From sequence record OQ703618.1: a stretch of 64,000 nucleotides of DNA; one strand, written 5' to 3'. The position numbers and the translations under genes were made by a program. The DNA is from Escherichia phage GADS24. The notes under the pieces are model-generated. The model searched no databases, was not told the origin of the DNA, and saw only the letters and a list, made by a program, of their open reading frames with translations. Below, one piece after another: positions 12,703 through 43,389 of this stretch (position 1 is its first letter; every line of letters starts with the position of its first letter).

Positions 12703-13803
12703 TTACGCTGTGAAGATTTTATCCCACATCGCAACAACTGCATCTCGGTTATACTTCTTCCATACTGCTTCAGCGCGTTTAACTCGAGCTTCGTATGTGT
12801 CAGTGAATTCTAATACAGCTTTTGTGTAAAGCGCAACTACTTCTTTCTTAGGAGTAGAGGAATCAATTTCTACACGCACAGTATCTGGGTCGTATTCGAA
12901 TGTCGCATGAGGATAATCCTTAAAAACTAACTGGATTACAGGGACACCTTTAGAGATGGCTTCAATAGAACTATTCTCTACTGTACCTGTGTCAGGACAC
13001 GTATTAATAAGTGCTTTAGCTGTTTTAAGACGTTCCATGATTTCACTGTGTGGAGCATCAATAATAACAGGATATTTAGCTGGTGGTGCCCATTTACTAG
13101 GACAGTATCCTACACCATTTTCGCCTAGTGCTTTAATCGCTTCAAGAGCAACATCAGTACGACGCATTTTAGTGTCATAACGTTGTGCACTAATAATCAA
13201 ATCAGTTGCCGGGAGAACTTCTGGTTTTTCAGTCAAACAAATAACCGGATAATCTTCGGCTTCAAACAACGGATTTGCTCGCCAATAATCATAATCAATT
13301 TTGTCAGTCAGACCTGAAGTCATATAACAATATTTGCGTTCAAATTCACGGAAGGCTTTAGTAGGAGCATAACTCTTACCACCATTCTTATGAATTTGAA
13401 TAGTCTGGTCCCAAATTTGAACAATGCCACGAGATACCGGTTCAAATGGTGTTGCCATAAAATTCTTATGAACTTTAGAGAGACCTGCGTCTTTAATTGC
13501 CTGAACGGTTAGTTTAGTCGGTTCCATAGTAACAACAAAATCGTATTCATGTATGCCGGCTAGTTCGACAATCTTACGAGCCATAGTATAACTCATACCT
13601 AGACTGAATTTAGTCAGATGTCCAACAGGGTGGTGTGTAACTTTCCAGTCACCAAACGTGTCATTATCAAAGCCGATATAATCAATATCAGCACCGATGG
13701 ACACAAGATATTTCAACACATTTAAATGTACTGCTTCAAGACCACCTTGTACACGGTCAGGATTAAATGGGACTGCACGAGATGGGATAAACATAACTTT
13801 CAT
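12703..13803 (-). CDS. GT-B fold glycosyltransferase; candidate hmC-DNA sugar transferase (arabinosyltransferase-like)
   Basis: 366 aa; C-terminal GT4-like E-x7-E motif (VENSSIEAISKGVPVI); lies between rIIA.1 and gene 39 where T4 has gene 60; no alpha/beta-gt elsewhere in the window. Confidence 0.75.
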   Translation of the reverse strand: MKVMFIPSRAVPFNPDRVQGGLEAVHLNVLKYLVSIGADIDYIGFDNDTFGDWKVTHHPVGHLTKFSLGMSYTMARKIVELAGIHEYDFVVTMEPTKLTVQAIKDAGLSKVHKNFMATPFEPVSRGIVQIWDQTIQIHKNGGKSYAPTKAFREFERKYCYMTSGLTDKIDYDYWRANPLFEAEDYPVICLTEKPEVLPATDLIISAQRYDTKMRRTDVALEAIKALGENGVGYCPSKWAPPAKYPVIIDAPHSEIMERLKTAKALINTCPDTGTVENSSIEAISKGVPVIQLVFKDYPHATFEYDPDTVRVEIDSSTPKKEVVALYTKAVLEFTDTYEARVKRAEAVWKKYNRDAVVAMWDKIFTA

Positions 13804-25444: not shown

Positions 25445-25475
25445 AATTAACTCCTTTGTTGTTTAATTACAGGTG

Positions 25476-25483: not shown

Positions 25484-25489
25484 ACTTAA

Positions 25490-26011
25490 TCAGTAACCAT
25501 TATCCTGGCGTTCAAAGTTGTGTTGGTTTTTCAAGTAGTAAAGTTTAAAGATTTCTTCAGCGGAAAGACCCAGACCTTGGAACATATTCAGAACAAAGTG
25601 GAGAATATCAATCATCTCAAATTTAATTTCAAGCTGGTCTTCAGGAGACAGTTCATCGATACGACGATTTCGATATTCAGCATGTTGTGCTTTCCATGGC
25701 TTCCATACAGAGCTAGCGGCTTTTTCACCATTGCTCATACCACCGAGTGAAGTCAGCAGTTCACGGAATTCATCATCAATATAATCTTTCTGATTACGCA
25801 GCCAATCAACAACATCACCGGCAGTGGCCAATTCATCAGGATGTTTGTTATGTTCAGGCTTGTCATTTGCCAGACGAACCTGTAAAGATTTCTGCATATC
25901 AAGCATTACCTGAAGTGGGTCTTTATCTTCGTGAATCAGAGCATTAAAATAAGCTTCTTCTGCTTTATCAACACCAGAAATAAGTTGTGAACATTCATTA
26001 AAGTGCGCCAT
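25490..26011 (-). CDS. 56: dCTPase/dUTPase gp56 (MazG-like dCTP pyrophosphatase)
   Basis: About 173 aa from ATG at 26011 (track start is TTG); position between soc and 61; SD AAAGGAAA. Confidence 0.8.
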   Translation of the reverse strand: MAHFNECSQLISGVDKAEEAYFNALIHEDKDPLQVMLDMQKSLQVRLANDKPEHNKHPDELATAGDVVDWLRNQKDYIDDEFRELLTSLGGMSNGEKAASSVWKPWKAQHAEYRNRRIDELSPEDQLEIKFEMIDILHFVLNMFQGLGLSAEEIFKLYYLKNQHNFERQDNGY

Positions 26012-26099
26012 TATTTTTCCTTTCAATTCAGTATAAGAGAGTTAATTCTAACATTAATTTTATAAAGCGTAATAAATAATAGGTAACTAAGGAGATATT

Positions 26100-27316: not shown

Positions 27317-27355
27317 AGTATTCTCCAGAGGCCTTAAATTAATAAGGCCATCATA

Positions 27356-27850: not shown

Positions 27851-28040
27851 TTACAAAGATTGCTTTGTCACCATTTATATCTGTGACTTCATATGTAGTG
27901 CCTTCATACTGTGGAATATTCCAAATTACACCATCATTAGCTTTTACGCTAATATGGCATTGGTGTTTTGAAACAACTTCATAATCTTCAAAACTTGTAA
28001 AAACACTAATTTTAGAACCAGTGCAAATTGCAGTAGTCAT
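27843..28040 (-). CDS. Hypothetical protein (65 aa)
   Basis: Small ORF with overlapping start/stop. Confidence 0.45.
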   Translation of the reverse strand: MTTAICTGSKISVFTSFEDYEVVSKHQCHISVKANDGVIWNIPQYEGTTYEVTDINGDKAIFVID

Positions 28041-28041
28041 T

Positions 28042-28701: not shown

Positions 28702-28987
28702 CTGTGATTTCGGTTACGATATCTTTGTTATCGAAATTAGGGTCACAATACAAAACATAATTGTACTGCATGATACCGCCAGACTTAAGTTGTTCAACAA
28801 CTTTATTAACCATATTAGGACGGTCTCTTTTAGTGATGTTCATGATATCAGAGAAGATTTGTTGTTCAACATCTTCTTGATTTGCAGTCATTGACCACTC
28901 ACAGAGGTCTTTATCATAACCTGCCGTAACTGGAGCTGGTGCACATGATACTGCAAGTAAGATTGCTGCCAATGATAACTTTTTCAT
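28694..28987 (-). CDS. sp: Spackle-like periplasmic protein (superinfection exclusion / lysozyme inhibitor)
   Basis: 97 aa with N-terminal signal peptide MKKLSLAAILLAVSCAPAPVTA; same length and position as T4 Sp; own promoter. Confidence 0.65.
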   Translation of the reverse strand: MKKLSLAAILLAVSCAPAPVTAGYDKDLCEWSMTANQEDVEQQIFSDIMNITKRDRPNMVNKVVEQLKSGGIMQYNYVLYCDPNFDNKDIVTEITGE

Positions 28988-29002
28988 TTTAACTCCTTAG
29001 TT

Positions 29003-29046
29003 GATTTGATAGGACTACTATACTATAGTCCATCTATAATGTAAAC
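29003..29046 (-). promoter_or_regulatory. Early promoter/stem-loop cassette for sp
   Basis: Minus strand GTTTAC..GGACTATAG-TATAGT-AGTCCTATCAAATC. Confidence 0.5.
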
Positions 29047-29050
29047 AAGT

Positions 29051-29299
29051 TTATTCTTTTTCGCGAATAATAATTACTTGTTGAGGCTGCTGAGCAGATT
29101 TCTTTTCGGCAACGATAGACCAAATTAAAGTTCCAATCCAACCAACCATCGTCCAGTTAAAGAGTAAAGATACAAAGAAGATTGCTGTTGTGCTTTTTGT
29201 GCCACGAATAAGTGCGATTACCCAAGGCAACATGTAAATGATGATTGAACCAATACCTGCGATTAAAACCGCTACTGAACTAGCTACGAATAATTCCAT
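29051..29299 (-). CDS. Small integral membrane protein (82 aa, 2-3 TM helices)
   Basis: Hydrophobic segments VASSVAVLIAGIGSIIIYMLPWVIALI and AIFFVSLLFNWTMVGWIGTLIWSIV. Confidence 0.5.
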   Translation of the reverse strand: MELFVASSVAVLIAGIGSIIIYMLPWVIALIRGTKSTTAIFFVSLLFNWTMVGWIGTLIWSIVAEKKSAQQPQQVIIIREKE

Positions 29300-29360
29300 G
29301 TTAATTTCCTCTTGATTTGTTATGTTTATAATATCTTATTTTAACTTTGGTGTAAACCAA

Positions 29361-29729
29361 TTAGTTAAATTTGTTTAAACGTTCAATACACTGGACGTAG
29401 TTATTTGCGATTTGTTTCTGGGTAGGCTCTTTACCAGTTGTTTCAACATAGCGAATGAATGCGATTTCAGTAGCCTGTAGACAATGTTCTTTAACGCGTT
29501 GTTCTTTTGACATAGCTACAGTATCAGAATCACGATAACGTTGAGCATGTGCATCAGCTTGAATCATTCGATTACCTACAGTAACCGGGTCTTCCACTTC
29601 AACTTTAGGTTGGTCATACTGTTTAACATTTGGATTGTAAATCAGTTGGCCAACGTTATTAGGGATAAAGCCATGGGCACCACATCCGGTTAATCCAAAT
29701 ACCATTGCTAAAGCGATTAATTTTTTCAT
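29361..29729 (-). CDS. Putative lipoprotein (122 aa)
   Basis: Signal peptide with lipobox MKKLIALAMVFGLTGC; early promoter upstream. Confidence 0.55.
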   Translation of the reverse strand: MKKLIALAMVFGLTGCGAHGFIPNNVGQLIYNPNVKQYDQPKVEVEDPVTVGNRMIQADAHAQRYRDSDTVAMSKEQRVKEHCLQATEIAFIRYVETTGKEPTQKQIANNYVQCIERLNKFN

Positions 29730-29745
29730 TTCAATTTCCTCTGTG

Positions 29746-29787
29746 GTTGATAGAAAGATAGTAACACAGTATGCGATGCTTGTAAAC
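29746..29787 (-). promoter_or_regulatory. Early promoter for the lipoprotein gene
   Basis: Minus strand GTTTAC-17 nt-TGTTAC-TATCTTTCTATC. Confidence 0.4.
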
Positions 29788-29789
29788 AG

Positions 29790-30002
29790 CTATTTTAAAC
29801 TTTTGCGAAATTTGCGTTTTTCTTGACGAATCTGTCGTTTAGTCGGACGTACAGCAAATTTAACGAAGTCCACTTTGCCATGTGGAAACTTTTCAGATGC
29901 TTCACAGTCCATCATTAGTTCCCATCCTTCCAGAATAAGAGCTTTCCATTGTGTAGTTGATGCAAATTCGTATGTTGATGGTTTAAACACAGTTGAATAC
30001 AT
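29790..30002 (-). CDS. Small basic protein, member of the RPTK(R/K)Q C-terminal motif family
   Basis: Trimmed to MYSTVFKP with SD GAGGA; C-terminal FAVRPTKRQIRQEKRKFRK shared with ORFs at 57505 and 58109. Confidence 0.45.
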   Translation of the reverse strand: MYSTVFKPSTYEFASTTQWKALILEGWELMMDCEASEKFPHGKVDFVKFAVRPTKRQIRQEKRKFRKSLK

Positions 30003-30003
30003 A

Positions 30004-30195
30004 TTATCCTCTGAAATCAGCTTCAAAAACTTTCTCGTCATTAACAAATGCTTTAACTAATGCTTTGTTCACTTCAGCAAGTTGTACCGTAACCCACTCG
30101 ATTTCTTCGCGATCACCTGATAACATGATATCTTTAGTGAACATCTCACCACTTTTAAACCAACCAATAAAAGTAACTTTAGTTAATTTGCTCAT
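30004..30195 (-). CDS. dmd: Dmd (inhibitor of RnlA/LsoA toxin RNases)
   Basis: 63 aa from ATG; FIGWFKSGEMFTKDIM..AEVNKALVKAFVNDEKVFEADFRG matches recalled T4 Dmd. Confidence 0.8.
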   Translation of the reverse strand: MSKLTKVTFIGWFKSGEMFTKDIMLSGDREEIEWVTVQLAEVNKALVKAFVNDEKVFEADFRG

Positions 30196-30509
30196 ATTTC
30201 CTCGCAAAATGCCCATTCAGCGTGATAAACTGTAGCACCTTTAGTATTATTCATTTGAACTACGTCTACCGGAGAAATTACTCGATAGAGACGTGGTTCA
30301 CCTCCATAAGAGCGTGCTGCTCGTCCTGCATAAATCTTTGCTAAACCAATATCTTCAGTAAAGAATACACGATCCAGGTTTTTCTTACGTCCAGTTTCAG
30401 ACAGAACTCCTGTTTCCTCAGGAGGACAAAGCATGTTTTCGATGTTAGCTGAACTACTTGAACCGTGATAAAAAATCTTAAATTCTGCTTTACAATCGAT
30501 GGTTTTCAT
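30192..30509 (-). CDS. Hypothetical protein (105 aa)
   Basis: Minus-strand ORF with ATGA overlap to dmd; promoter cassette upstream. Confidence 0.5.
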   Translation of the reverse strand: MKTIDCKAEFKIFYHGSSSSANIENMLCPPEETGVLSETGRKKNLDRVFFTEDIGLAKIYAGRAARSYGGEPRLYRVISPVDVVQMNNTKGATVYHAEWAFCEEI

Positions 30510-30523
30510 TTTGTTCTCCAGTA

Positions 30524-30564
30524 GTTGATAAGTCTATAATAACACAACTACTGGAGAAGTAAAC
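30524..30564 (-). promoter_or_regulatory. Early promoter cassette
   Basis: Minus strand GTTTAC-17 nt-TATTAT-AGACTTATCAAC. Confidence 0.45.
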
Positions 30565-30939
30565 TTAAAAACGTAATTTAGATACATCTACGTTGATTTC
30601 GCTTTGGTTTGCGTCGTATGCAATTAAACGAACCGCTTTAGATGGGTCATTCAATGCATAGAAATGATGGAACATTGCTCGAACGATATCACCATTTACG
30701 AGTTCTACCTGGATAGGAGAACCTTTTTCGAGTTGGAAATGTTCATAAGCTTTGATGGTTCGCAGATAATCAAGTTTTTGATTTCCGGCTCCAACAATTT
30801 GTACGATACGTTTGCCCATGTTTTCCATACGAGATACAATAGTTTTAGGAGCAAGAATAACGTAGGTTGCCAGTGGAGAAACTACTTCAACAGTTGTGTT
30901 TTCGGTGATTGCAGTAAAAATTGCTTGAGACATATTCAT
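30565..30939 (-). CDS. Hypothetical protein (124 aa)
   Basis: Minus-strand ORF with SD AAGAGGAAAAC. Confidence 0.5.
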   Translation of the reverse strand: MNMSQAIFTAITENTTVEVVSPLATYVILAPKTIVSRMENMGKRIVQIVGAGNQKLDYLRTIKAYEHFQLEKGSPIQVELVNGDIVRAMFHHFYALNDPSKAVRLIAYDANQSEINVDVSKLRF

Positions 30940-32479: not shown

Positions 32480-32842
32480 TTAAAAGAATTTAAATTTTTT
32501 CTTGGTCCGTTCATTAAAAGCTTGTTGTACTTGCATTGTAACACATTTTTCAACATGTGGTGCAAGTTCTGCTTTTCTGTCCTGGTCAAGAACTGCAAAG
32601 TCCATTACGATTTTACCATCAACCCAGTCTAGTTTTGTAATATAGACTATATGATGAGAACCATCTTCAAGCGTAATCAGAATCTCTTGAATGACATTTT
32701 CCATTGCTGAACGGACGATTTTAAGAGATTCATTAAACACTCGTTCTTTGCGAATGTCTTCCCCTTCCGAAGAAGGGGATTCATCAACGATTTCTAGATT
32801 TAAATCATCGAGATTATTCATCGAAATCTTCCATTTCGTCAA
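32480..32842 (-). CDS. 40: gp40-like protein (head vertex assembly chaperone position)
   Basis: 120 aa; assignment by synteny between uvsX and 41. Confidence 0.5.
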   Translation of the reverse strand: MTKWKISMNNLDDLNLEIVDESPSSEGEDIRKERVFNESLKIVRSAMENVIQEILITLEDGSHHIVYITKLDWVDGKIVMDFAVLDQDRKAELAPHVEKCVTMQVQQAFNERTKKKFKFF

Positions 32843-33986
32843 GGTCGTTTTCTATATCTGCTGCAGAAGGAGCATCAGAAGTTTTAACCGGAACTTTAGT
32901 TGTTGCTTTGCAATTAATAAGGTCATTAACAGCGTCATCAACTTCTTTAATAGAAGAGATAGCACCTAGTTTATATTTAGTTTCAATTGCATCTCGGAAA
33001 GGTTTGTGTTTAAACAATGGTCCCCAGAATTCTACACAATCAGTAGCTTTAGCACGCCATGATTTTTCTTCACGAATCATTTCACCTGTTTCTTCGTCAA
33101 GGAATTCACGAGCATACCAACCAGCTTTAGGCTTAACCACAAAACCGATTTCAGTTGCCATTTCTAACAAGCCGCTGAATGGGTCAATACCGCCATCAAA
33201 ATTAACCGTGATTGGGAAAGTAGATTTCTCTTTAACTGTACGAGATTTTTCTGCTTTCAACGTGAAGTCATAACCGGTCAATTCTGTACCTTCTTTAACC
33301 TGACGTTTAGAGATAAAGAATACAGTGTTAGCAGAGTAAAGAATACCTGTACCACCACCCATAATCTCTTTAGGATATAGACCGCCGATTTCCATTGCTG
33401 TATGGTTGATTGCAACACACGGAATATCTTTAATAGTCAGATAAGGAGTCACAATGCGGAACAGAGATTTAAGTGCCTTAGCACGAGACATATCACCTAC
33501 AACTTTCTCGTTCAACGCATCTTCGGTTTCTTTCTTAGATGCAGTATTACCGATTGAATCGATAAAGATAATAACTTTATCGCCGCGTTCAATCGCGTCA
33601 AGCTGATTAGTCATATCAACTTTAAGTTGTTCTACAGATTGAATCGGAGTATGAACTACACGGTCCAAATCAACACCCATTGAACGGAAGTAAGATTCTG
33701 AAGCACCGAATTCTGAGTCATAAAACAAACAGATTGCATCTTTATATTTCTTCATATATGCTGCAACCATGGTCAGTCCAAACAACGTTTTAAAGTGTTT
33801 AGAAGGAGCAGCAAAAATAGTTAAGCCTGATTGCAACCCAGCATTCAGTGCACCACCTAATGCAATATTCAACATCGGAATACGAGTAGGGACTTCATCA
33901 CGATTATTAAACAGCTTAGACTTAGTCAAGTCTGCAGTCATTTTAGAAGTAGAAGCTTTAATCAGACGAGATTTTAAATCAGACAT
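32814..33986 (-). CDS. uvsX: UvsX recombinase (RecA-like)
   Basis: 390 aa; RecA core; N-terminus MSDLKSRLIKASTSKMTA resembles recalled T4 UvsX. Confidence 0.9.
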   Translation of the reverse strand: MSDLKSRLIKASTSKMTADLTKSKLFNNRDEVPTRIPMLNIALGGALNAGLQSGLTIFAAPSKHFKTLFGLTMVAAYMKKYKDAICLFYDSEFGASESYFRSMGVDLDRVVHTPIQSVEQLKVDMTNQLDAIERGDKVIIFIDSIGNTASKKETEDALNEKVVGDMSRAKALKSLFRIVTPYLTIKDIPCVAINHTAMEIGGLYPKEIMGGGTGILYSANTVFFISKRQVKEGTELTGYDFTLKAEKSRTVKEKSTFPITVNFDGGIDPFSGLLEMATEIGFVVKPKAGWYAREFLDEETGEMIREEKSWRAKATDCVEFWGPLFKHKPFRDAIETKYKLGAISSIKEVDDAVNDLINCKATTKVPVKTSDAPSAADIENDLDEMEDFDE

Positions 33987-34085
33987 TGTATTTTTCCATA
34001 GGCATCATTATATTTTACTCATGTTTAAAAGATAAGACGATTATATACTAAGGGTTATACAGCGTTTAAAACTTTAAACAGGCTC

Positions 34086-34634
34086 TTAACGAGCCCATTT
34101 GATAATTTCTGTAATCAAATTATTACGTTCGCTTGCATTAAATCCTATAACTTTGTTAGCACCATCATGATTAAGTAATTGATATGTTTGGATTTTGTTA
34201 TGAATTGCAAACTCTTCAAAATGTGAAATGACTGTATTAAAACCGAATGAAGACAAAGTAATAAGGTCGTCTTCAAAACTTTCAGTCATTTCGTTACGTG
34301 TTAAAATAATTGTGAACACATCATGGTTTTGGCAAAGACGAACATAATCCTGTTCATAAACATCAAGAACCGAGTCCGCATCTTGTCGAATACGTCCATA
34401 AACCCAGTTACTAATATATCCACGGTCTAACAGATAAATCTTAGTAGGGTCTAAATAATTCAACATCGTTTCGAAACAGCCAACTTCATTTCGAGACTTA
34501 ACATCAAAACGTCCATCAACTGTTCGTTTAGGGAAATCAATTTTTACATATCTTTCACTAATTTCCATTATGTCATTAATGAAAGTTGTTTTACCAGCAT
34601 TATCCGGGCCATCTACTAAAATAATTTTAGCCAT
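34086..34634 (-). CDS. P-loop nucleotide/nucleoside kinase-like protein
   Basis: 182 aa; Walker A VDGPDNAGKTT and LLDRGYIS (DR motif) as in dNMP/thymidylate-type kinases; first gene of the modification cluster. Confidence 0.6.
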   Translation of the reverse strand: MAKIILVDGPDNAGKTTFINDIMEISERYVKIDFPKRTVDGRFDVKSRNEVGCFETMLNYLDPTKIYLLDRGYISNWVYGRIRQDADSVLDVYEQDYVRLCQNHDVFTIILTRNEMTESFEDDLITLSSFGFNTVISHFEEFAIHNKIQTYQLLNHDGANKVIGFNASERNNLITEIIKWAR

Positions 34635-34635
34635 T

Positions 34636-35535
34636 TTATTCCTCGATTACGACATCTTCGTATTTAGGTATATTATACGGTGAAGAAATTAAAGCATTAA
34701 AGTAGATGAACTCGCCAAGACCTGGATGGAATACTTCTTCAGGATTTTCGAAATATTGAATCTTCGGCCGTCCTTTAAGAATTTGATAGTACTCAGTTTT
34801 AGTTGGTTTAAAAATTCGAATCAGCGCTTCTTCAGGATACTTATTTCTATCGAAGCTATTATTTGGATCGGTTACATAAAGCGGTTGACCTAATTGAATT
34901 GCACATTCAACCACTTGTTCAAAACGATAGCACGGGTCACTAATTCGAAATGGATGAAAAATACCATCTAGATGAATAGGAGCCAAATCACCTACAAAAC
35001 GCTGCATGATGGAAGGACGTATAACTTTCTGGGTTACGATAATCTTATTACCATCTGCACCAGCGTTAACCAGCACTTCCTTTTGACGTTCATTCAACAC
35101 AGTAGTTTGAAGTGAACGATTAACCGACAACATGTCGGTTTTTAAGAATTCGTCAATATAAAAACGTGGTTTATTAGGGTCTGCAGTGATATTGAAATTG
35201 AATTCTACATCAAAAGCTCCGTCATATCCAGTGATATCTGTTATTAGAAAATCACAATCATAATAAGCAATTAATGAATCAACCACAAATTCATTTTCAG
35301 ACCAGAAATATTTACGAGTGTTATACGCGTTATCTTTATACCATAACGGAACAAACTTAAATTCTGGGAAAAGACGTTCACATTCTTTAATATCAGATGC
35401 ATTACGTGGATATGTAATAACATCACCCGGATTAGCACGGTGCAAATGAAGTTGGAAGTTGCCATCCTTAAGGATAGCATACTCTCCAGTTTCATAAGAC
35501 CGCATACTCAAGATAGGTACGCGGAAAATAGCCAT
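34636..35535 (-). CDS. Hypothetical protein (299 aa) in the modification cluster; possible transferase
   Basis: Immediately downstream of gene 42 with ATGA overlap; Asp-rich YYDCDF segment; no family recognised. Confidence 0.55.
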   Translation of the reverse strand: MAIFRVPILSMRSYETGEYAILKDGNFQLHLHRANPGDVITYPRNASDIKECERLFPEFKFVPLWYKDNAYNTRKYFWSENEFVVDSLIAYYDCDFLITDITGYDGAFDVEFNFNITADPNKPRFYIDEFLKTDMLSVNRSLQTTVLNERQKEVLVNAGADGNKIIVTQKVIRPSIMQRFVGDLAPIHLDGIFHPFRISDPCYRFEQVVECAIQLGQPLYVTDPNNSFDRNKYPEEALIRIFKPTKTEYYQILKGRPKIQYFENPEEVFHPGLGEFIYFNALISSPYNIPKYEDVVIEE

Positions 35536-36251
35536 TAGTCAAGGAATCCTTTAACATAATCAAAATCACGTTCAAACACATGGGCACTTACCATGGTATG
35601 AGTATAATCACCAACTTCTACACCACATTCGTTAGCGATATAATGAAGTAATTTTCCTTGGAGATAAAAATCCAACTGCATAACAACAGCACAGTTCTGA
35701 GAACGCATATGGCAGTGGGTATAAAGCTTACCATCACGAATATAATAAGTCACTGAGTCAGTACATGGATATTCAAGCGTTTCGTCCGAATCAAGCAAAG
35801 CCTGATCAGAACTTTCTAGAATTTGGAACACAACTCTTCGAGAGTTAGGTTTCTCTTTAAGTTCTTTGAGAAGAGCTGGTAACTGGGCCGCAATTCGTGG
35901 ACCATAGAAAGTGTTGAAGTTTGCAGGCAAAGCATCTGATTTCGGTTTAGAAATAAATTTAGCAACGTTAGGATATGCCTTAAATGCTTCTTCTGCATCA
36001 GTTCCGCCAGAAATCATAAATTTCCAGAAATCTTCGGCATATTCATAAGAGATGCGGTTAATACGTGGGTCGGTCATTTTGAATGATGATGGAGTGTCAA
36101 CAACTACTGTCATAGACCCAATTTCATTACAACGTCCAATACGAGAATCAGTTACGAATTCCGGGTTTTCTAAAATCTCACGATTGACTGCTTTAAATGC
36201 GGATTGAAAATCTGCGGCTTTAATATATTTCATTGTGTTATGTTTTCCCAT
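35535..36251 (-). CDS. 42: dCMP hydroxymethylase (thymidylate synthase family), gene 42
   Basis: 238 aa; TS-family core with nucleophile Cys in YPCTDS, RS dyad 20-21 residues later and Asp at the position of TS Asn177 (cytosine specificity). Confidence 0.75.
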   Translation of the reverse strand: MGKHNTMKYIKAADFQSAFKAVNREILENPEFVTDSRIGRCNEIGSMTVVVDTPSSFKMTDPRINRISYEYAEDFWKFMISGGTDAEEAFKAYPNVAKFISKPKSDALPANFNTFYGPRIAAQLPALLKELKEKPNSRRVVFQILESSDQALLDSDETLEYPCTDSVTYYIRDGKLYTHCHMRSQNCAVVMQLDFYLQGKLLHYIANECGVEVGDYTHTMVSAHVFERDFDYVKGFLD

Positions 36252-36292
36252 GTTTACCTCAATACAGTTATTATATACTCAATTCATAAAGC

Positions 36293-36532
36293 TTATTTGA
36301 ATTTCTTAGCGATGTTGATATAACGTAGAGCTTCGGCATCGATACTTCTAAGGACACTATGAAGGAATGCGTCGGCATAGTATTCTAGTTGAACAGGTTC
36401 TTTAATCGCTTTAGCCGCTTTAGTTTCAAACAGGCCCATAAGGGCCTTTTTAAGAATTTGTTCGTTGCTGGTAATTTTAATAGTCAAAATCTCTTCATTA
36501 AGTTGGTGGTTAAAAGTTTTTCTAGAAATCAT
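36293..36532 (-). CDS. Hypothetical protein (79 aa)
   Basis: Small ORF between the U32-like gene and gene 42. Confidence 0.45.
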   Translation of the reverse strand: MISRKTFNHQLNEEILTIKITSNEQILKKALMGLFETKAAKAIKEPVQLEYYADAFLHSVLRSIDAEALRYINIAKKFK

Positions 36533-37689
36533 TCCGGGTACCTCAAAGCGTCGTCAGAGTTAGTTATATCAATAATAGATATAGAATTTTCTGATAACCC
36601 ATTTTTAGATAACTGACGTTTATAATATCTTTCACAATATGTACACGTCGTCCCGCAGATTTCATTAGCACAATCGAAATCTGGATGTCTGAACCACCTT
36701 TTTTCTAAAAAGCCGTCTAACAAAGAGGTTTCAATATTTACCGTATGTGAAAACTCGGTCTCATTTTCAAGAGTGAAAATGGTCTCTAAAGGCTTCCACA
36801 GTTCTAACAAATTACCTTCAAACTTTTCAGAAGCGTATGCTTCAAGAACTTTCAAAATGTAGTCTGTGCTACCTGTACGTCCTGAAACTTTGAATTGAGT
36901 GATACCAATATCATTATAAAGTTTCAAATCTTGTGGACGAACAAAACGAGTTCTCAACCAGTTAAATGGGTCTGTATCACGAGCTTTAATACAGTGCTGC
37001 ATAGGATATCCATTTAAGGATTTAGCATCATCAGCTGTAACATCAGTACTATGGAAAATATAGCAAGAGTCACGATAGCTACAATGTGTTGTATACCCTT
37101 TACCAGCATTAGAACAGAACTCATTTACAAGAACTTCAAATATTATATTGTTCTTATTGCAAAACTCTGCTGCACGCTTCAGGAAAGAAACTGAACGGTT
37201 CTTATGAATTCCACAGCAGACCTTTTTGATATTATACTGGTCATGTAAGTATTTGATTTGAGTTACAGCATCGACATGTAAAATTGTTGAAACTTCAATC
37301 TCAATGTCTTTATTGACTTCACGAACAATTTCCATAACAACAGGGTTAGCGATAGTAATACGCCATACGCCTATTGACCAAAGATACTGAACATAATCCT
37401 GAATAGCTTTCTTCTTCCACTCAACTAGTTCTCTTTTTGAACCGGGATTTATCGTGTTGAGTGTATAGTTAAAGCAAATACCTAATTCGTTACAACGTTT
37501 AACGTAATCTTCTAACATCTTTTTGTCAACGTCAGGAAGCCTAAAATCAGGTCTGGCTGCTACAAAAGCCATTTCTCTTGTAGAGCCGTATACTTCGTTT
37601 ATCAAGCTATTAGGATAAGTTTTATTGAGCTCTACGATTTTATCAAGAAGAGCTAAATCAAAATTCGTTCCGATTTTAAAAGTATTCAT
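36529..37689 (-). CDS. Cys-rich TIM-barrel-like enzyme, peptidase-U32-like (putative Fe-S protein), about 386 aa
   Basis: N-terminal pattern resembling U32 proteins (..EVYGS..ARPDF..ICFNYTLNT), central EVLVNEFCSNAGKGYTTHCSY, C-terminal CGTTCTYC (CxxxCxxC); trimmed to first ATG. Confidence 0.55.
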   Translation of the reverse strand: MNTFKIGTNFDLALLDKIVELNKTYPNSLINEVYGSTREMAFVAARPDFRLPDVDKKMLEDYVKRCNELGICFNYTLNTINPGSKRELVEWKKKAIQDYVQYLWSIGVWRITIANPVVMEIVREVNKDIEIEVSTILHVDAVTQIKYLHDQYNIKKVCCGIHKNRSVSFLKRAAEFCNKNNIIFEVLVNEFCSNAGKGYTTHCSYRDSCYIFHSTDVTADDAKSLNGYPMQHCIKARDTDPFNWLRTRFVRPQDLKLYNDIGITQFKVSGRTGSTDYILKVLEAYASEKFEGNLLELWKPLETIFTLENETEFSHTVNIETSLLDGFLEKRWFRHPDFDCANEICGTTCTYCERYYKRQLSKNGLSENSISIIDITNSDDALRYPE

Positions 37690-37748
37690 TTTTTTTTTGC
37701 ATCTCACGTTAATTGACGCGATGGTTTTTGCAGGTCTTACTTAAATTA

Positions 37749-38150
37749 TTATAGATTCGGTTTATATGATTTAAATGTTTCGAATTCGCCTTTATTCATA
37801 AGAGCTTTGAATTCGTCGGGACGCATAGCTTTGTCGTCGATAATCCAATCATATACTGGTTTATGTGTTAGCAAATTATGGTACTTCAAGCCAATGTTTG
37901 CCAAGTTCTGAATAAGACTTGGGAGAATGTCAATTGCTATACGACCAGGACCTACTGACTTCATACCGCGAGCAGTGTAAAGCGTTATGGTATGCCCTGC
38001 ATCATACAGGGCATTAATGGCAGACACCATTTCGACGTCTGGTTTGAAGTTCACGTAATCACGATTGTTATTCCACTCTGTTATACAATCATCGACATCA
38101 AAACAAAGATTAAGCATGTTTTCTACACGGTGCATTAGATTCGTTCCCAT
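37749..38150 (-). CDS. HAD-superfamily phosphatase (KdsC-like sugar-phosphate phosphatase)
   Basis: 133 aa; motif I FDVDDCIT (DxDx[T/V]) near the N-terminus; overlaps the upstream gene. Confidence 0.65.
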   Translation of the reverse strand: MGTNLMHRVENMLNLCFDVDDCITEWNNNRDYVNFKPDVEMVSAINALYDAGHTITLYTARGMKSVGPGRIAIDILPSLIQNLANIGLKYHNLLTHKPVYDWIIDDKAMRPDEFKALMNKGEFETFKSYKPNL

Positions 38151-39820
38151 TGATGAGTGATATCGCCACCGATTGGACGATAGGAAACACCAGTTTCTTT
38201 ATCAGTTAGTACCCATTTACCAGGATTTTTTGTAATCAGAGTAGCCGTTACAGGTTCTGCCATGTCATAACTAATAGAGCCGTCCTGAAGTACACGGCCC
38301 ATGTTACGTAATTGCTTAGTCAGAAGTTCCATACCTTTATAATATGCGGCTACCGCTTTAAGTGGATTATTCTTGAAATAACCACCTAATGCAATCCAGA
38401 TAATTGCTACAGCCAAATGATGATACTCGTTAAATGAACTCATCTTTCCATATTTGTAAACTAATGGATTGATGTTAATAGTCACATTACAAGTTGTTTC
38501 ATCAATAGTAAACTGTCCCCAGGTCGGATTAGCGTTGAATTCATCATAACCTGAAACAGCATAAAGCACTTTAGCTTCATCGTACAATTTTGGCCCGTAA
38601 ATCTTGGTTTCGCCAAAATATCCACGAGGGTCGATAAACTTGACTTCGCCGTTATCAGTAATCATAGTATTACTGAAGTTCGGGTCACCGTGAATAACAG
38701 AGTACTGTCCCTGAGAACGGTTATGATAACGAATAAGGTGTTCTAAAGCTTGTTTCAGCATTGGCTTCAGACGCCCAATCTTAGTGTAGTTCACATGTGT
38801 GATTTTACCAAATGAATCAATCAATGGTTGAATACTTTCACAACGATCAATAACTTTCGTATAGAATTCTTTAGTGAAATCACGACGAACAGTTTCAGGA
38901 CTTACAAAATAAGTGTCTGTGCTGAATTTCAGTGCATCTAAAATTGCATCAACAATTTGTGGACGAGCAAGACTCGATTTAGATTTAATATATTCAAATG
39001 CCGGCTTACCTTTAATGCGTTCCATTTCAAAGTTATTTTCATTAACAGAAACTAACTGAGGAACTGAATCTGATTTCACTTTAAGATACCATGAAATCTC
39101 ATCTTTCTGAAGAGCTCGTCCCTGTTCGGTTAATGCGAATTTAGTTACAGTTTCTTCACCAATTTCAACTGCATTAAAACTACGATTAAGTTCACGAACT
39201 TCATGAGCTTTTTCAAGTTTAGGCATATCACCTAAATCAATTAGATTCATAAGCTCTGATTTATTGAATGCGCCGCTGTAAAGGAATTCTACGAAATCAC
39301 GTCCTTTGCAGTATTCATGAATTTCCTCATCAGTAGAACCCATATAGAATTCCCAGTCTTTGAATTGATAAATTCCTACAACATTACCACCTGTTGAACC
39401 TACGTTAGTGATATTTTCACCGTCGAAATTATATCGACATTCGTCACCCTTAACATAGATTGCGTTAACATTCCAAGACCATGAACCAAAATCAGGAATA
39501 ATATCACACCAGTTAACAATTACATTATGGCCGTCTAAATCTTTGTGTAATTTAGCAAGAGCATAAGCGGAACCATATGCTTCATCAACTGTACGAATAG
39601 TCACATTGAACCCTTCTTGCTCACAATAAGCTCGAACAGTTTCAGCAAATTTTGAATGAACTACTACAATAATTTCATCTGCGCCAAGGTCAGAATAAAT
39701 TGTATACAAATTGCTCAGAATAGTGTCTTGTTTATAGTTAACAAGCACCTTAGGAATATGATGCGTTATTGGATACAAACGAGTTGCCAGTCCAGCACCA
39801 AGAATAACAGCTTTTTTCAT
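38135..39820 (-). CDS. Bifunctional sugar-1-phosphate nucleotidyltransferase (N-terminal) / sugar kinase (C-terminal)
   Basis: 561 aa; N-terminal ILGAGLATRLYPIT..PKVLV (RmlA/GlmU-type G-x-G-x-R); C-terminal HGDPNFSNTMI..FIDPRGYFG resembling APH/choline-kinase catalytic loop. Confidence 0.7.
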   Translation of the reverse strand: MKKAVILGAGLATRLYPITHHIPKVLVNYKQDTILSNLYTIYSDLGADEIIVVVHSKFAETVRAYCEQEGFNVTIRTVDEAYGSAYALAKLHKDLDGHNVIVNWCDIIPDFGSWSWNVNAIYVKGDECRYNFDGENITNVGSTGGNVVGIYQFKDWEFYMGSTDEEIHEYCKGRDFVEFLYSGAFNKSELMNLIDLGDMPKLEKAHEVRELNRSFNAVEIGEETVTKFALTEQGRALQKDEISWYLKVKSDSVPQLVSVNENNFEMERIKGKPAFEYIKSKSSLARPQIVDAILDALKFSTDTYFVSPETVRRDFTKEFYTKVIDRCESIQPLIDSFGKITHVNYTKIGRLKPMLKQALEHLIRYHNRSQGQYSVIHGDPNFSNTMITDNGEVKFIDPRGYFGETKIYGPKLYDEAKVLYAVSGYDEFNANPTWGQFTIDETTCNVTININPLVYKYGKMSSFNEYHHLAVAIIWIALGGYFKNNPLKAVAAYYKGMELLTKQLRNMGRVLQDGSISYDMAEPVTATLITKNPGKWVLTDKETGVSYRPIGGDITHQWERI

Positions 39821-39861
39821 GTTGTGGTCCTCATTGGTAAGTAGGAGTATTGTACACTATT

Positions 39862-40005
39862 CTAGTTAAAGCATTCATACTTTGCTTGTAGTCCAATCAT
39901 AATCCATCCAATTACAAGTGTTGGAATCATTACTGGAGCCGTTAAGCTCCAGTAGATAGTCATGACAAGCATCAATAGTAAAAGTCCTATTGTTATTGCT
40001 TTCAT
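39862..40005 (-). CDS. Small hydrophobic peptide (47 aa)
   Basis: ATG overlaps the stop of the isomerase gene (ATGA); translation MKAITIGLLLLMLVMTIYWSLTAPVMIPTLVIGWIMIGL; below ORF-track cutoff. Confidence 0.3.
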   Translation of the reverse strand: MKAITIGLLLLMLVMTIYWSLTAPVMIPTLVIGWIMIGLQAKYECFN

Positions 40006-40637
40006 TGTTCGCCTCGTAACATGGCACCTAGTGCACCACCAGGGTGGAACTTAAGGAAGTCATTAGAGGTAAATCCACGTTCAGACGAAAGGTTGATAGC
40101 GAACGTATCGATAAGCGCTAACAACAATGTAGTAGACATTGTCGGAGCTAAAGAGTTCTCGTCAACTTCTACCGCGATGCCTGTACAGAAAGAGTAATCA
40201 AAAAGGGCTTCATTTTCTTGCGGAATGTCAGGGTTACAATGTAACAGAATCTGTTTAACCTGAGGACGAATCATACGAAGATGTTTAGCAACACCTATCA
40301 TTTCTTCGGTTTTACCAGAACGACTAATATGAATCAACACATCATTAGGCGCAATGAATCCTGCATCACCGTGAGAATAATGCCCAGTGTTCAAGTACAT
40401 ACTCGGGATACCGAGTGAAGCAAATGTCTCAGAAGCTTTAGTTGCAATATTAGCATTCTTACCAACACCTGTAATAATTACTCGGCTTTCATAATTACTA
40501 AGTCCTGGGCGTCGAAGAGTTTCTAGAATAGCATTATAACGAGCAGGGTTTTGACTAATTACTTTGGCCATAGTAGCCAAAGAAGAAGCTTGTTTTACGA
40601 TTGCGTCAATAGCGATAGTAATAGGAGTAGTTTTCAT
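40002..40637 (-). CDS. SIS-domain sugar-phosphate isomerase (KdsD/GutQ-like arabinose-5-phosphate isomerase)
   Basis: 211 aa; SIS motifs ITGVGKNANIA and SRSGKTEE, C-terminal FHPGGALG as in API enzymes. Confidence 0.75.
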   Translation of the reverse strand: MKTTPITIAIDAIVKQASSLATMAKVISQNPARYNAILETLRRPGLSNYESRVIITGVGKNANIATKASETFASLGIPSMYLNTGHYSHGDAGFIAPNDVLIHISRSGKTEEMIGVAKHLRMIRPQVKQILLHCNPDIPQENEALFDYSFCTGIAVEVDENSLAPTMSTTLLLALIDTFAINLSSERGFTSNDFLKFHPGGALGAMLRGEQ

Positions 40638-40677
40638 ATTTCTCTCATTTAATTAGTTTACCGTCCATGGTATTATA

Positions 40678-43389
40678 TCAAAAATCGAACATATCGAACA
40701 GAGATGCTTTCTTCTCGTAATCGAGTTTCGCCGCTGATGTGAATCCTTCAAGTGGTTTAATAAATGTCTTCTCAAGGAGAACAGTGTAGTCCATCCAATG
40801 AAGTACGTCGTCTTTAATTAAATCTGTGATTTCAGTACCAGAAGGCCATGCGATACATTTATCACCGAATGGGTTTCCTTCACGTAAAGGCAGAACATAT
40901 ACTTTTTCACCTTCTACAACTTGCGGTGCATCGATATTACCTTTGATAGCTCTGTTATATGTCAGAATTCCACGAATATGGAACGGACATTTAGGACCAG
41001 GGAATCCACCAACGTCATATTTAGCAATGTTATTCGCAGAAGATACCGACGCGATGCTAATATAATTCAATTGACGGAATTCTTTTTCAAACTCTTTAAA
41101 ATATTCTTGTAATGATTCTTCACCTTCTTGAAGCATACGGCGAATACATTCTTTAAGAGCTTTCTGTACTGCTTTAGGGGTCGAAGATTTCTGAGTCTCT
41201 AGACCCATGATTTTGAGTTTAGGCTCAGCGTAACGAGTACCTTCCATATCCCACACGTTTAATGCATAACGTTTCTTACCAGTCCAGAATCCACCAATAC
41301 CTTTAGAACCGAGTGGAGGACCAGCGATAGCTTCTCGGTCCATGAACATTAAGTGTTGTTTATTGTTCATGTATTCACACATTTCACGGAAACCTCTATC
41401 AATAGCTGGTTCCATACGTTCACGTGCAAACTTATCTAAGAAGTCTACCCAATGGTTGGTATCACGGAATTTAGATTCACCAACCTTATCAATAATTTTA
41501 TCAGCAGATACGTAAATAGAGTCTGTATCACCATAAAGAACGAAAGCTTCACCTTCTGTGCCACAAACTTCATTCAGATATTCATTAACTTTACGTTCAA
41601 TCCACTGTAAAGCCATTTGCCCGAATGTTGTGATTGCAGTAGCATTACGCAAATCATAATAACGGAACCAAACGTTGCCAAGTGCACCATAAAGTGAGTT
41701 GATAAGCAATTTACGGTTAATTTGGGCAGTCATACCTGCAACTTCAGTACGTTGAGCTCTAAACAACATTTCATTAAGAGATTTAGCAGACAACTTTTTA
41801 ATCTTTTCTTTAATCTCATCACTGAAGTCGAAACGATAATCAACATCTAACGGTTCGTCAACAGAAAGATTAGGATTATGCAATGCCTCTTTAATTATTT
41901 CACCGTTACGTTGAGCCGCAAGCATATAACCTTTATGTTCTTTACGTTGATTAAAGACTTTAGTGATTTCAGTTGGAACAACACCGTCACGGTCTTTATA
42001 ATACATCATGCCGTTAGGAGAACAACTGTACACATCAGAAGGTCGTTCAGCAACAGCGTTAATATAATCATGCAATGGAGCTACTTTAAACGTTCCTGCT
42101 ATTGTTTCTGGGCTAATATTCACTTGGCGAATAATACTTGGATACAGAGATGTGAGGTCGAAGCTCATCACATATTTGTATCGATTTGGAATAGGTTCCT
42201 TAACAAAAGCGCCAGGATAAGGTTGAACCGGATGAGAACGACCTTGTGGAATCACCTTGTTCTGCTCTTTAAGGCTATTAAAAATAATAGCATCCCATGT
42301 TTTAATAGGGCTAAACACAGATTGAATCTGTATCTTAGCATAATAACCCATGTCCAAGCTCAAGTTAATGAACTGACGTTTACCATCAATTTGCAATACA
42401 CGATACACGTCGATAATGTTATAAGAAATATATCGTTGGTGATTGCTTTCACGAAGCTTAGAAATAGGGCCGTCATATTTCAGTTTACCAACGTTCAATT
42501 CAAATTCTGAAATGTAATCCAGAGAATACGACGGTTGATTAGTAAAAGAGAATTTTTTGTAAAGGTCAATGTAATCAAGAACAGAGATACCGAACAATGT
42601 AATGATTTCACGAGAACCATACATGTTTTCGATAACTTTAACACGTGTTTTACGATGCGGTGATAAACGTTTCGCAGTAGATTCGCCAAAAATATTCTTG
42701 ATTCGGTTATACACATATGGAATATCAAATGACTCAACGTTCCATCCAGTCAAAATGACAGGAGTTTTCTGTTGCCAGAAGTTGAGATATTCCATCAACA
42801 ATTCTTTTTCATTATCGAACGGCATATAAACGATTTTGTCGATAATTTCGGATGGAACTTCATCACCACCTTGTTCTTGAAGCTTAGCAGCAATTTCGAT
42901 AGACCATTCTTCCACATTACCATATGGAGAATTCAAAAGGTCAAATACGTAGAACCTGTCGTCAATTGAGTCATAATGGGTGATAGCATCAATTGGATGT
43001 TTTGCTTGTGACGGCTCAGGGAACCCGTCTGGAGATGTTACTTCGATGTCGAAGTTAGCCACACGAATTTTTGTATGGTCGTATTTGATTTCATAGTTAT
43101 AAGTGTCAGACAAATACGCCAATTTGAAATCGTCCATGCCAAGTGCTTCAAGTCCGATATCTTCCATGCGTTTAATCCATTGGGAGGCATCACGCATATT
43201 GGCGAACAACTTACGAGTACACGGCTTACCGTAGATATCGAAATATTTCGTAGCCTGACTTTCCGGACAATGAGCAAACAGTGATGGTTTATATTCTACT
43301 TCACGAGTACGTTCACGGCCATTAGAATCGATGTAACGTTCAAAAATTGAATCACCAATCTGTTCAACCGTTAAGTAAAATTCTTTCAT
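40678..43389 (-). CDS. 43: DNA polymerase gp43 (family B)
   Basis: 903 aa; exo motifs FDIEV, pol motifs DTDS and KxxxNSxYG; N-terminus MKEFYLTVEQIGDSIFERYIDSNGRERTREVEYKPSLFAHCPE matches recalled RB69 polymerase. Confidence 0.95.
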   Translation of the reverse strand: MKEFYLTVEQIGDSIFERYIDSNGRERTREVEYKPSLFAHCPESQATKYFDIYGKPCTRKLFANMRDASQWIKRMEDIGLEALGMDDFKLAYLSDTYNYEIKYDHTKIRVANFDIEVTSPDGFPEPSQAKHPIDAITHYDSIDDRFYVFDLLNSPYGNVEEWSIEIAAKLQEQGGDEVPSEIIDKIVYMPFDNEKELLMEYLNFWQQKTPVILTGWNVESFDIPYVYNRIKNIFGESTAKRLSPHRKTRVKVIENMYGSREIITLFGISVLDYIDLYKKFSFTNQPSYSLDYISEFELNVGKLKYDGPISKLRESNHQRYISYNIIDVYRVLQIDGKRQFINLSLDMGYYAKIQIQSVFSPIKTWDAIIFNSLKEQNKVIPQGRSHPVQPYPGAFVKEPIPNRYKYVMSFDLTSLYPSIIRQVNISPETIAGTFKVAPLHDYINAVAERPSDVYSCSPNGMMYYKDRDGVVPTEITKVFNQRKEHKGYMLAAQRNGEIIKEALHNPNLSVDEPLDVDYRFDFSDEIKEKIKKLSAKSLNEMLFRAQRTEVAGMTAQINRKLLINSLYGALGNVWFRYYDLRNATAITTFGQMALQWIERKVNEYLNEVCGTEGEAFVLYGDTDSIYVSADKIIDKVGESKFRDTNHWVDFLDKFARERMEPAIDRGFREMCEYMNNKQHLMFMDREAIAGPPLGSKGIGGFWTGKKRYALNVWDMEGTRYAEPKLKIMGLETQKSSTPKAVQKALKECIRRMLQEGEESLQEYFKEFEKEFRQLNYISIASVSSANNIAKYDVGGFPGPKCPFHIRGILTYNRAIKGNIDAPQVVEGEKVYVLPLREGNPFGDKCIAWPSGTEITDLIKDDVLHWMDYTVLLEKTFIKPLEGFTSAAKLDYEKKASLFDMFDF

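Follow-up and report, generated by a model that had tools for sequence, protein, structure and literature searches.

The arabinosyl-5-hydroxycytosine DNA hypermodification cluster of Escherichia phage GADS24 and a possible oxygen-independent hydroxylase role for its U32 protein

The stretch analysed here, 64,000 nucleotides of Escherichia phage GADS24 (record OQ703618.1; hereafter the window), is from a Mosigvirus according to megablast. On its minus strand, at 34086-40637, lie eight co-oriented and tightly packed genes, verified by a check of the open reading frames (ORFs) of the window and listed in Table 1. They are flanked by uvsX (32814-33986) on one side and by gene 43, encoding the DNA polymerase (40678-43389), on the other. 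Junctions are 1-nt gaps or overlaps (34634/34636, 35535/35535, 36529-36532, 38135-38150) and the GC content of 0.33-0.40 shows no contrast with the flanking DNA. The cluster corresponds gene for gene to gp45-gp55 of phage RB69, with proteins 94-100% identical. We have little doubt that this is the Mosigvirus gene set for DNA hypermodification with arabinosyl-5-hydroxycytosine (ara-5hoC), composed of orthologs of these RB69 genes. This cluster is already known, having been published in 2018 and 2025-2026; the new part is a testable hypothesis for its U32 gene and for the chorismate mutase (CM) partner of that gene.

A previous interpretation of the same DNA, made without database searches (the sequence-only reading), had listed seven of these ORFs. 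All are present on the minus strand with correct coordinates and sizes, and only the ORF of 79 amino acids (aa) had been overlooked. Its placement of the cluster where T4 has beta-gt/42/imm was borne out. Its general idea of a non-glucose cytosine hypermodification, combining a base modifier homologous to thymidylate synthase (TS) with a module leading from ribulose-5-P to an NDP-arabinose, was right in outline. Profile scans agreed with most of its family calls (SIS, NTP_transferase, HAD, U32, TS superfamily and P-loop kinase), the label dCMP hydroxymethylase being the one to be abandoned. It rightly left open the roles of the U32-like protein and of the P-loop kinase. The system itself is not the candidate novelty that it was taken for: the same genes were reported from RB69 and relatives in 2018, and their characterisation followed in 2025-2026.

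Table 1. Genes of the GADS24 window assigned to the ara-5hoC system
Feature	Coordinates	Strand	RB69 counterpart and remarks
Thymidylate-kinase-like P-loop kinase, 182 aa	34086..34634	-	gp45
Candidate DNA arabinosyltransferase 1, 299 aa	34636..35535	-	gp46:47 ortholog
5-hydroxy-dCMP synthase (predicted), 238 aa	35535..36251	-	gp48 ortholog
79-aa helical protein	36293..36532	-	gp49
U32-family Fe-S protein (predicted), 386 aa from ATG	36529..37689	-	gp50 ortholog
HAD-family phosphatase, AfhF-type, 133 aa	37749..38150	-	gp51
Bifunctional AfhE-type enzyme, 561 aa	38135..39820	-	gp52:53 ortholog
SIS arabinose-5-phosphate isomerase, 211 aa	40002..40637	-	gp55 ortholog
Candidate second arabinosyltransferase	12706..13803	-	ORF003c/gp3 ortholog; between rIIA and topoisomerase gene
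dCTPase	25493..26011	-	gp56 ortholog

At the DNA level, megablast gives the block 98.4% identity to phage JN02 and 97.5% to RB69 23962-30661, where the gene order is the same. At least 80% of the block as query is covered in 151 phage records, and 154 records match at 95-99% identity. Such conservation excludes a chance arrangement. In the RB69 reference NC_004928, two genes that are intact in the window are split, one extra T at position 544 of the glycosyltransferase gene giving ORFs 46/47 and one extra C at position 654 of the bifunctional-enzyme gene giving ORFs 52/53. Most relatives too carry both genes intact, and the two single-base insertions fit sequencing errors, in agreement with the published view. 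For the U32 gene, homologs beginning with MNTFK favour the ATG start over an upstream GTG at 37707. A promoter and terminator scan of 33900-40800 gave counts of 22 versus 24.7 and 3 versus 3.7 by shuffle, with no minus-strand terminator, and says nothing on transcription units. Between the bifunctional enzyme and the isomerase, the gap at 39820-40002 holds only a short ORF, the equivalent of RB69p054, whose annotation notes a similarity to the T4 42-imm intercistronic region; in other genera a 47-aa predicted transmembrane ORF is found between the two genes (L002 3708-3851; L003 6819-6962).

Virion DNA of RB69 and of Mosigvirus NP carries mono- or di-arabosyl-5-hydroxycytosine (PMC13326640, PMC13390438). 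Thomas et al. 2018 detected arabinose on RB69 DNA, named the base arabinosyl-hydroxymethylcytosine (ara-hmC) and designated these genes as UDP-arabinose candidates (PMC6024577). Lee et al. 2026 then established by nuclear magnetic resonance (NMR) and mass spectrometry (MS) of RB69 DNA that arabinose is ether-linked directly to C5, the base being 5-hydroxycytosine (PMC13326640). A later 2026 paper called the ara-hmC assignment erroneous and independently confirmed ara-5hoC for Mosigvirus NP (PMC13390438). The TS homolog of RB69, gp48, binds FMN and makes 5-hydroxy-dCMP (5hodCMP) with oxygen derived from 18O2; together with a kinase it suffices for production of the 5-hydroxylated deoxycytidine (5hodC) under aerobic conditions (PMC13326640). 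A crystal structure with flavin is credited to He et al. 2026 by the same paper.

The TS homolog of the window is identical at 236 of 238 positions to PDB 9IQC/9IR2/9IQU and scores 56.9 bits with the TS superfamily. From the catalytic Cys146 to Arg166 it has the same spacing as E. coli ThyA, and E143, N169 and D177 are read from the register LEYPC ... RSQNCAVVMQLD. This signature was read in an ungapped, spacing-based register, MAFFT having placed a spurious 2-residue gap there. Asp177 accounts for dCMP specificity, and the Asp169 of folate-dependent dCMP hydroxymethylase is replaced by Asn, the published diagnostic of 5hodCMP synthases (PMC13326640). Because of the N169 signature and the 99% identity to the solved enzyme, the protein is assigned as a predicted flavin/O2-dependent 5hodCMP synthase and not as the dCMP hydroxymethylase of the sequence-only reading, whose choice of hydroxymethylcytosine (hmC) as the base fails with it.

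Three enzymes, 98-99% identical to RB69 gp51, gp52:53 and gp55, would provide the activated sugar. The isomerase passes Pfam SIS (40.7 bits, cutoff 25), belongs to phrog_5670 and is 98% identical to its RB69 counterpart; its NCBIfam scores for KpsF/GutQ (111.7 bits) and KdsD (106.9 bits) both remain under the full-length cutoffs because CBS domains are absent. We infer that it converts ribulose-5-P to arabinose-5-P (Ara5P), as proposed in PMC13326640. In the bifunctional enzyme, an N-terminal NTP_transferase domain covers residues 3-99 (39.1 bits, cutoff 21.2), and weak APH/choline-kinase-like matches cover residues 308-409 of the C-terminal part. In the PDB, the protein matches 1JYK (E 2e-5). 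The HAD phosphatase scores 49 bits, under cutoff, with the capsule-biosynthesis subfamily TIGR01689; it belongs to phrog_1238 and carries motif I, DVDDC, at residue 18. According to the account of the HY126 route given in PMC13326640, AfhE converts Ara5P to Ara-1,5-bisphosphate, AfhF removes the 5-phosphate and AfhE then produces UDP-arabinofuranose. By homology to these enzymes, the bifunctional protein of the window would combine a C-terminal Ara5P 1-kinase with an N-terminal UDP-arabinose pyrophosphorylase, and the HAD protein would convert Ara-1,5-bisphosphate to Ara-1-phosphate. The kinase thus precedes the phosphatase, the reverse of the free-pentose route suggested earlier for this locus.

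The 299-aa protein, which the sequence-only reading called unknown, belongs to phrog_3891 and is the 98% identical ortholog of RB69 gp46:47, a published candidate arabinosyltransferase 1. A GT-B fold is assigned to the RB69 counterpart in Table 1 of PMC13326640; searched against the PDB as a single sequence or as a family profile, the window protein gave no sequence match. In that role it would transfer the first arabinose onto the 5-OH. For its homolog TH2_066 of phage Thanatos-2 (L017 4534-5436), PMC12838424 reports in vitro synthesis of UDP-xylose with UTP and xylose-1-phosphate as substrates, an activity that is odd for a glycosyltransferase and at odds with the role given in RB69. The candidate second transferase is 98.9% identical over 366 aa to RB69 gp3 (tblastn), for which this role was proposed in PMC6024577 and PMC13326640. 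The dCTPase, 97.1% identical to RB69 gp56 (tblastn), is in the pathway list of PMC13326640 Table 1, where it supplies dCMP and excludes unmodified dCTP from the pool. Finally, the P-loop protein is in the thymidylate kinase family phrog_761 (E 2e-45). The profile of its family matches 1TMK (E 2e-7), 2V54 and YorR, and G9/G14/K15 (GxxxxGK) and D70-R71 (DR(Y/H) motif) are invariant, while the single sequence scores 16.7 against an NCBIfam equivalog cutoff of 83. These motifs and profiles identify it as a divergent member of the thymidylate kinase (TMK) family.

Taken together, the pathway in GADS24 would run as follows. The dCTPase would provide dCMP, which the TS homolog would hydroxylate at C5 with flavin and O2, and a dNMP kinase with the host NDP kinase would yield 5ho-dCTP, replacing dCTP in replication. 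Ara5P formed by the isomerase would be phosphorylated at C1 by the bifunctional enzyme and relieved of its 5-phosphate by the HAD phosphatase, and the nucleotidyltransferase domain would give UDP-arabinofuranose. Up to UDP-arabinofuranose, this scheme follows published work on nearly identical proteins. According to proposals in the literature, the 299-aa glycosyltransferase would then attach the first arabinose to the 5-OH and the gp3 ortholog would add the second.

The U32 protein passes Pfam Peptidase_U32 with 42.2 bits (cutoff 22.4). Its AlphaFold2 (AF2) model is a beta/alpha barrel (pLDDT 84.8), for which the top Foldseek match in the PDB is the U32 structure 5D88 (E 4.5e-7); by sequence, neither the single protein nor the family profile matched the PDB. 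Residues E185, C203 and C209 align with E161/C169/C176 of RlhA and E162/C170/C177 of TrhP (CX5C spacing versus CX6C) and are invariant in 18 diverse members of the family. In RlhA and TrhP, this Glu and the two Cys are essential in vivo. Ten Cys are invariant across the same 18 members, including those of a C-terminal CX4CX3CX2C motif. A third Cys, C233, aligns with UbiU C193; the fourth Fe-S ligand would be C192, which is particular to this family, or one of four C-terminal Cys (C340/C345/C349/C352). Wherever a U32 protein has a defined cellular role, it is linked to a hydroxylation that depends on prephenate and not on O2, and for two of these proteins the target is C5 of a pyrimidine, cytosine included: RlhA is responsible for ho5C2501 in 23S rRNA and TrhP for ho5U34 in tRNA, UbiU/UbiV being involved in anaerobic ubiquinone synthesis. 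Among the cluster proteins, U32 is the best conserved across genera (79-86% identity), above the polymerase or UvsX in several comparisons. Genes for segB/segC-like homing endonucleases adjoin U32 in Serratia phage LC53 (L003 9041-9679), Edwardsiella phage PEi26 (L014 3195-3833), Yersinia phage phiR1-RT (L016 2927-3565) and Proteus phage PM2 (L021 10027-10710).

In Klebsiella phage KLB31, the ORF overlapping the U32 stop is annotated as chorismate mutase. We found that the ORF following U32 passes Pfam CM_2 in KLB31, LC53, PEi26, F48, phiR1-RT and Thanatos-2 (32.8-44.6 bits, cutoff 27) and that all six proteins keep the catalytic residues of EcCM (Arg11/Arg28/Lys39/Glu52/Ser84/Gln88, AroQ type II). 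In Thanatos-2, where the cluster is rearranged, U32 and CM are still together. Among 46 loci with an N169-type TS homolog on viral contigs, U32 and CM occur together in 13, U32 without CM in 2, CM without U32 in none, and neither in 31 (Fisher p 1e-9, uncorrected for phylogeny). All 15 Straboviridae U32 loci carry the TS homolog.

The slot where other genera carry CM is occupied in the window by the 79-aa ORF, whose start overlaps the U32 stop (translationally coupled) and which is conserved in Mosigviruses (phrog_8601). It has no Cys and no Pfam or NCBIfam match, including Pfam at E up to 10, and its AF2 model shows three helices (pLDDT 69) with no significant Foldseek match. We considered it as a diverged CM and rejected this assignment (E about 0.9 with a hidden Markov model of the phage CMs, hhalign probability 0.3%, no CM_2 match). 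Members of the family lie between U32 and CM in Yersinia, Pectobacterium and related phages, and are present in 5 of the 15 Straboviridae U32 loci; the phiR1-RT homolog (L016 4769-4966) is 44% identical and comes in addition to a separate true CM. Since the two coexist in phiR1-RT, Mosigviruses have lost their CM, and their prephenate would have to be supplied by host PheA/TyrA. The 79-aa protein may be a U32 accessory factor.

The U32 family as a whole counts 305 members. Beyond Straboviridae, it includes a clade with 37-58% identity on low-GC viral contigs with PolIII-alpha replicases, one contig measuring 466 kb. We surveyed the neighbourhoods of 33 such distant U32 loci (37-56% identity) within 10 kb. 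A homolog of the 299-aa glycosyltransferase is encoded on the same strand in 21 of the 33, in 8 cases directly upstream and sometimes overlapping. A TMK-like kinase was found in 19, an AfhE-type enzyme in 12, an arabinose-5-P isomerase in 10 and a CM in 5. A TS homolog is present in a single locus, where it keeps Asp169, and none of the distant U32 contigs is in the list of TS-type contigs. The glycosyltransferase and kinase pair is thus accompanied by a TS-type hydroxylase, by U32 or by both, the pattern expected of two analogous enzymes. As the TMK-like kinase accompanies the glycosyltransferase in 41 of the 46 TS-type loci as well as in these U32 loci, its association suggests a kinase of modified dNMPs and, hence, hydroxylation at the nucleotide level. 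Phosphorylation of the modified dNMP is its likely function, and may be redundant because the RB69 gp1-type kinase already phosphorylates 5hodCMP (PMC13326640).

Shikimate-pathway genes are found beside the distant U32 genes as well. Fusions of DAHP synthase and CM, with CM at the C-terminus, are located just upstream of U32 in four loci; in one locus, U32 is followed by a DAHP synthase on its own (237 bits for that family versus 63 for Kdo8P synthase), and in another a lone CM is beside it. The fusions and the lone DAHP synthase have the coordinates L047 8411-9433, L048 9-971, L050 7302-8357, L051 8332-9387 and L007 9145-9891; in these uncultured phages the enzymes for entry into the shikimate pathway and for prephenate formation are phage-borne. 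Locus L009 (6495-14179) encodes a TMK-like kinase, a glycosyltransferase of the 299-aa family, U32, a TAGT-family glycosyltransferase next to U32 (33.9 bits, cutoff 27.5), a dUTPase/dCTP-deaminase-like protein and a UDP-galactopyranose mutase. The logic is similar to that described for galactofuranosyl-5hoC in Rhizobium phage RL38J1, with U32 in place of the TS homolog. On megaphage-like contigs (L006 7447-9086; L008 7504-9083; one of 466 kb), U32 comes immediately after a dCMP deaminase. Close by, L006 and L008 encode thymidylate-kinase-like and UDG-family proteins and PolIII-alpha, with no recognisable glycosyltransferase of the 299-aa family, and this arrangement may point to a modification of the 5-hydroxyuracil rather than of the cytosine type.

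The distribution of U32 can be compared with the oxygen requirement of the hosts. At 80% identity or more (221 records), U32 was found only in phages of facultative anaerobes (Enterobacterales, Shewanella), and it is apparently absent from 57 Acinetobacter phage records with an AfhE-type enzyme and from a Pseudomonas phage. A strict aerobe/anaerobe host rule was nevertheless rejected: it holds one-sidedly, being broken by Dhakaviruses and Serratia phage 4S. AfhE matches at 26-28% identity, such as that of Vibrio phage D490, were discarded as not being the same cluster. The window also carries nrdG/nrdD for the anaerobic ribonucleotide reductase (54714-56995, minus strand), with products 99% and 98% identical to those of RB69. 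NrdD/NrdG show that the phage is equipped to replicate without O2, where an O2-dependent 5hodCMP synthase could not work.

We regard it as an even bet that the phage U32 protein is a prephenate-dependent, O2-independent pyrimidine C5 hydroxylase acting on a deoxynucleotide or on DNA, and the sole hydroxylase in the uncultured PolIII-alpha phages. This predicted Fe-S protein would be a second C5 hydroxylase of the pathway, with prephenate as oxygen donor, in line with the proposals made for RlhA, TrhP and UbiU/V. In anaerobic hosts it would sustain 5hoC synthesis and back up the flavin 5hodCMP synthase. Prephenate would come from the phage's own CM in most genera and from host PheA/TyrA in this Mosigvirus. 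In the large uncultured low-GC PolIII-alpha clade, U32 would feed the same glycosyltransferase and kinase, a non-orthologous displacement of the TS-type enzyme. In the literature covered, to which He et al. 2026 and Mahler et al. 2025 do not belong, we found no link of phage U32 or CM genes to DNA modification. Table 1 of PMC13326640 labels gp50 'sugar or heterocycle reductase' without discussion, and the authors of the Thanatos paper say that they lack a hypothesis for the origin of the hydroxyl.

For the cluster as a whole, nothing substantive was found against its identity; the one reservation is that the DNA chemistry is known from RB69 and Mosigvirus NP, the GADS24 isolate being known from its genes alone. 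Two other assignments were weighed. The cluster could be an ara-hmC system, with hmC as the product of a dCMP hydroxymethylase and free pentose as an intermediate of sugar activation (isomerase, HAD phosphatase, kinase, nucleotidyltransferase). The 2018 MS identification of the RB69 base points this way, as do the free-arabinose wording retained in PMC13326640 Table 1 and the dCMP-specifying Asp177 and acidic residue 143 of the TS homolog, seen also in T4-type hydroxymethylases. This proposal is already refuted for RB69 by the ether linkage at C5, by the 18O2-derived oxygen and FMN of gp48 and by the judgement of PMC13390438 on the 2018 assignment. With N169 in a window protein nearly identical to the solved enzyme and the order of kinase and phosphatase in HY126, it is very improbable for GADS24. 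Alternatively, the sugar genes might be auxiliary metabolic genes devoted to host surface polysaccharide (Kdo, lipopolysaccharide or capsule) and not to DNA. The isomerase is indeed KdsD/KpsF-like, the best family of the HAD protein is a capsule-biosynthesis phosphatase, and depositors' labels include 'capsular polysaccharide biosynthesis protein' and 'GlmU'. Profile scans of the eight cluster proteins found no KdsA or KdsB homolog (neither DAHP_synth_1 nor a cytidylyltransferase-KdsB family was matched); the sequence-only reading had named a lipopolysaccharide/Kdo context with KdsA as what would speak against it. Moreover, the genes lie within the replication block, in one operon-like array with the base hydroxylase and the candidate DNA glycosyltransferase, arabinose is present on RB69 virion DNA, and inactivation of the AfhE homolog in phage Thanatos abolishes propagation (Thanatos paper). 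We give the polysaccharide explanation next to no credence.

The decision is much less clear for U32, which might not be a base hydroxylase at all. It could instead reduce sugars or heterocycles, cleave peptides or hydroxylate RNA of the host or the phage, the CM serving another purpose such as aromatic rerouting. We lean only slightly against this. RlhA and TrhP act on RNA polymers and not on nucleotides, some U32 proteins have been reported as collagenases, and the published label of gp50 is that of a reductase. In addition, 5hodC synthesis in aerobic E. coli needs no U32, and U32 is missing from 31 of the 46 TS-type loci and apparently from all 57 Acinetobacter phage records with the AfhE-type enzyme. 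On the other hand, in unrelated phages U32 adjoins or overlaps a DNA glycosyltransferase and a nucleoside monophosphate kinase with no TS-type hydroxylase nearby, and in L009 it adjoins the TAGT-family glycosyltransferase. CM without U32 was never seen in the 46 loci, and a reductase role leaves the link to shikimate and prephenate genes unexplained; RB69 carries plain arabinose, so that no sugar reduction is needed. Several points also weigh directly against a prephenate-dependent base hydroxylase. U32 is dispensable under laboratory conditions, because gp48 and the kinase make 5hodC aerobically. No CM or CM remnant was detected in any frame of the window (best tblastn E 0.06), and neither U32 nor CM is present in E. 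coli Dhakaviruses (Bp7) or Serratia phage 4S, whose hosts are facultative anaerobes. The survey of distant loci covered 10 kb on either side, and a TS-type hydroxylase could lie elsewhere on these contigs. The fourth Fe-S ligand is family-specific and unaligned with UbiU or RlhA, no U32 hydroxylase has so far been reconstituted in vitro, and gene conversion by homing endonucleases, not selection alone, could account for how well U32 is conserved.

As is already published, phage DNA with ara-5hoC is protected against restriction enzymes and CRISPR nucleases and open to attack by other defences, which bears on phage therapy with Mosigviruses. A hydroxylase role of the phage U32 protein, if true, would answer how gut phages make an oxygen-requiring base modification in an anoxic habitat, and would add DNA precursors to RNA and quinones as targets of prephenate-dependent hydroxylation. 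Such a role would also offer a small, soluble U32 enzyme, maybe with a small-molecule substrate, and flag many uncultured phages for glycosylated hydroxypyrimidine DNA that searches with the TS signature would miss.

Compared with the ara-5hoC system of RB69, HY126 and DLP3 (Thomas 2018, Mahler 2025, He 2026, Lee 2026), the window shares the genes, their order, the second transferase and the dCTPase, with essentially no difference save the two genes split in the RB69 reference. The glucosyl-hmC system of T4 consists of the gp42 dCMP hydroxymethylase, the gp1 kinase and alpha- and beta-glucosyltransferases using host UDP-glucose. It occupies the same slot between uvsX and gene 43, follows the same logic (dCTPase, TS-superfamily enzyme acting on dCMP, kinase, glycosyl transfer) and serves the same purpose, restriction evasion. 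No alpha- or beta-glucosyltransferase is annotated in the matching RB69 regions and none was reported by Thomas 2018, no search having been aimed at them. The two systems differ in the base, oxygen being placed directly on C5 by a flavin/O2 enzyme with N169 in the window and a folate-derived CH2OH being added in T4. They differ also in the sugar, which is arabinofuranose in the window, with a UDP donor made by phage enzymes because the host has none.

For both ho5U and ubiquinone, E. coli has an O2-dependent route alongside one that depends on U32 proteins. A comparable side-by-side arrangement of aerobic and anaerobic enzymes is seen in TrhO/TrhP, UbiIHF/UbiUV and phage NrdAB/NrdDG, and here in the flavin 5hodCMP synthase with the candidate U32 hydroxylase. 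Unlike in the TrhO/TrhP-type pairs, redundancy in the phage is inferred, and many ara-5hoC phages carry the O2-dependent enzyme only. The phage U32 protein is remote from its cellular relatives: in a four-sequence search, its family profile gave E 8e-6 with TrhP, 2e-4 with RlhA and 3e-3 with UbiU. It differs from them by 10 residues inserted in the motif, among them an additional Cys, and by its own C-terminal CX4CX3CX2C. The DUF3656 and C-terminal domains that RlhA and TrhP possess are missing from it, and its presumed substrate is a deoxynucleotide or DNA, whereas RlhA and TrhP act on RNA. With RlhA, TrhP, UbiU and UbiV, it shares the domain, the essential Glu and two Cys, the richness in Cys and presumed Fe-S binding. 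The U32 genes of related phages are genomically coupled to prephenate supply, as fits enzymes of the RlhA/TrhP/UbiUV type, and the product of RlhA, 5-hydroxycytosine, is that of the pathway that surrounds the phage U32 gene.

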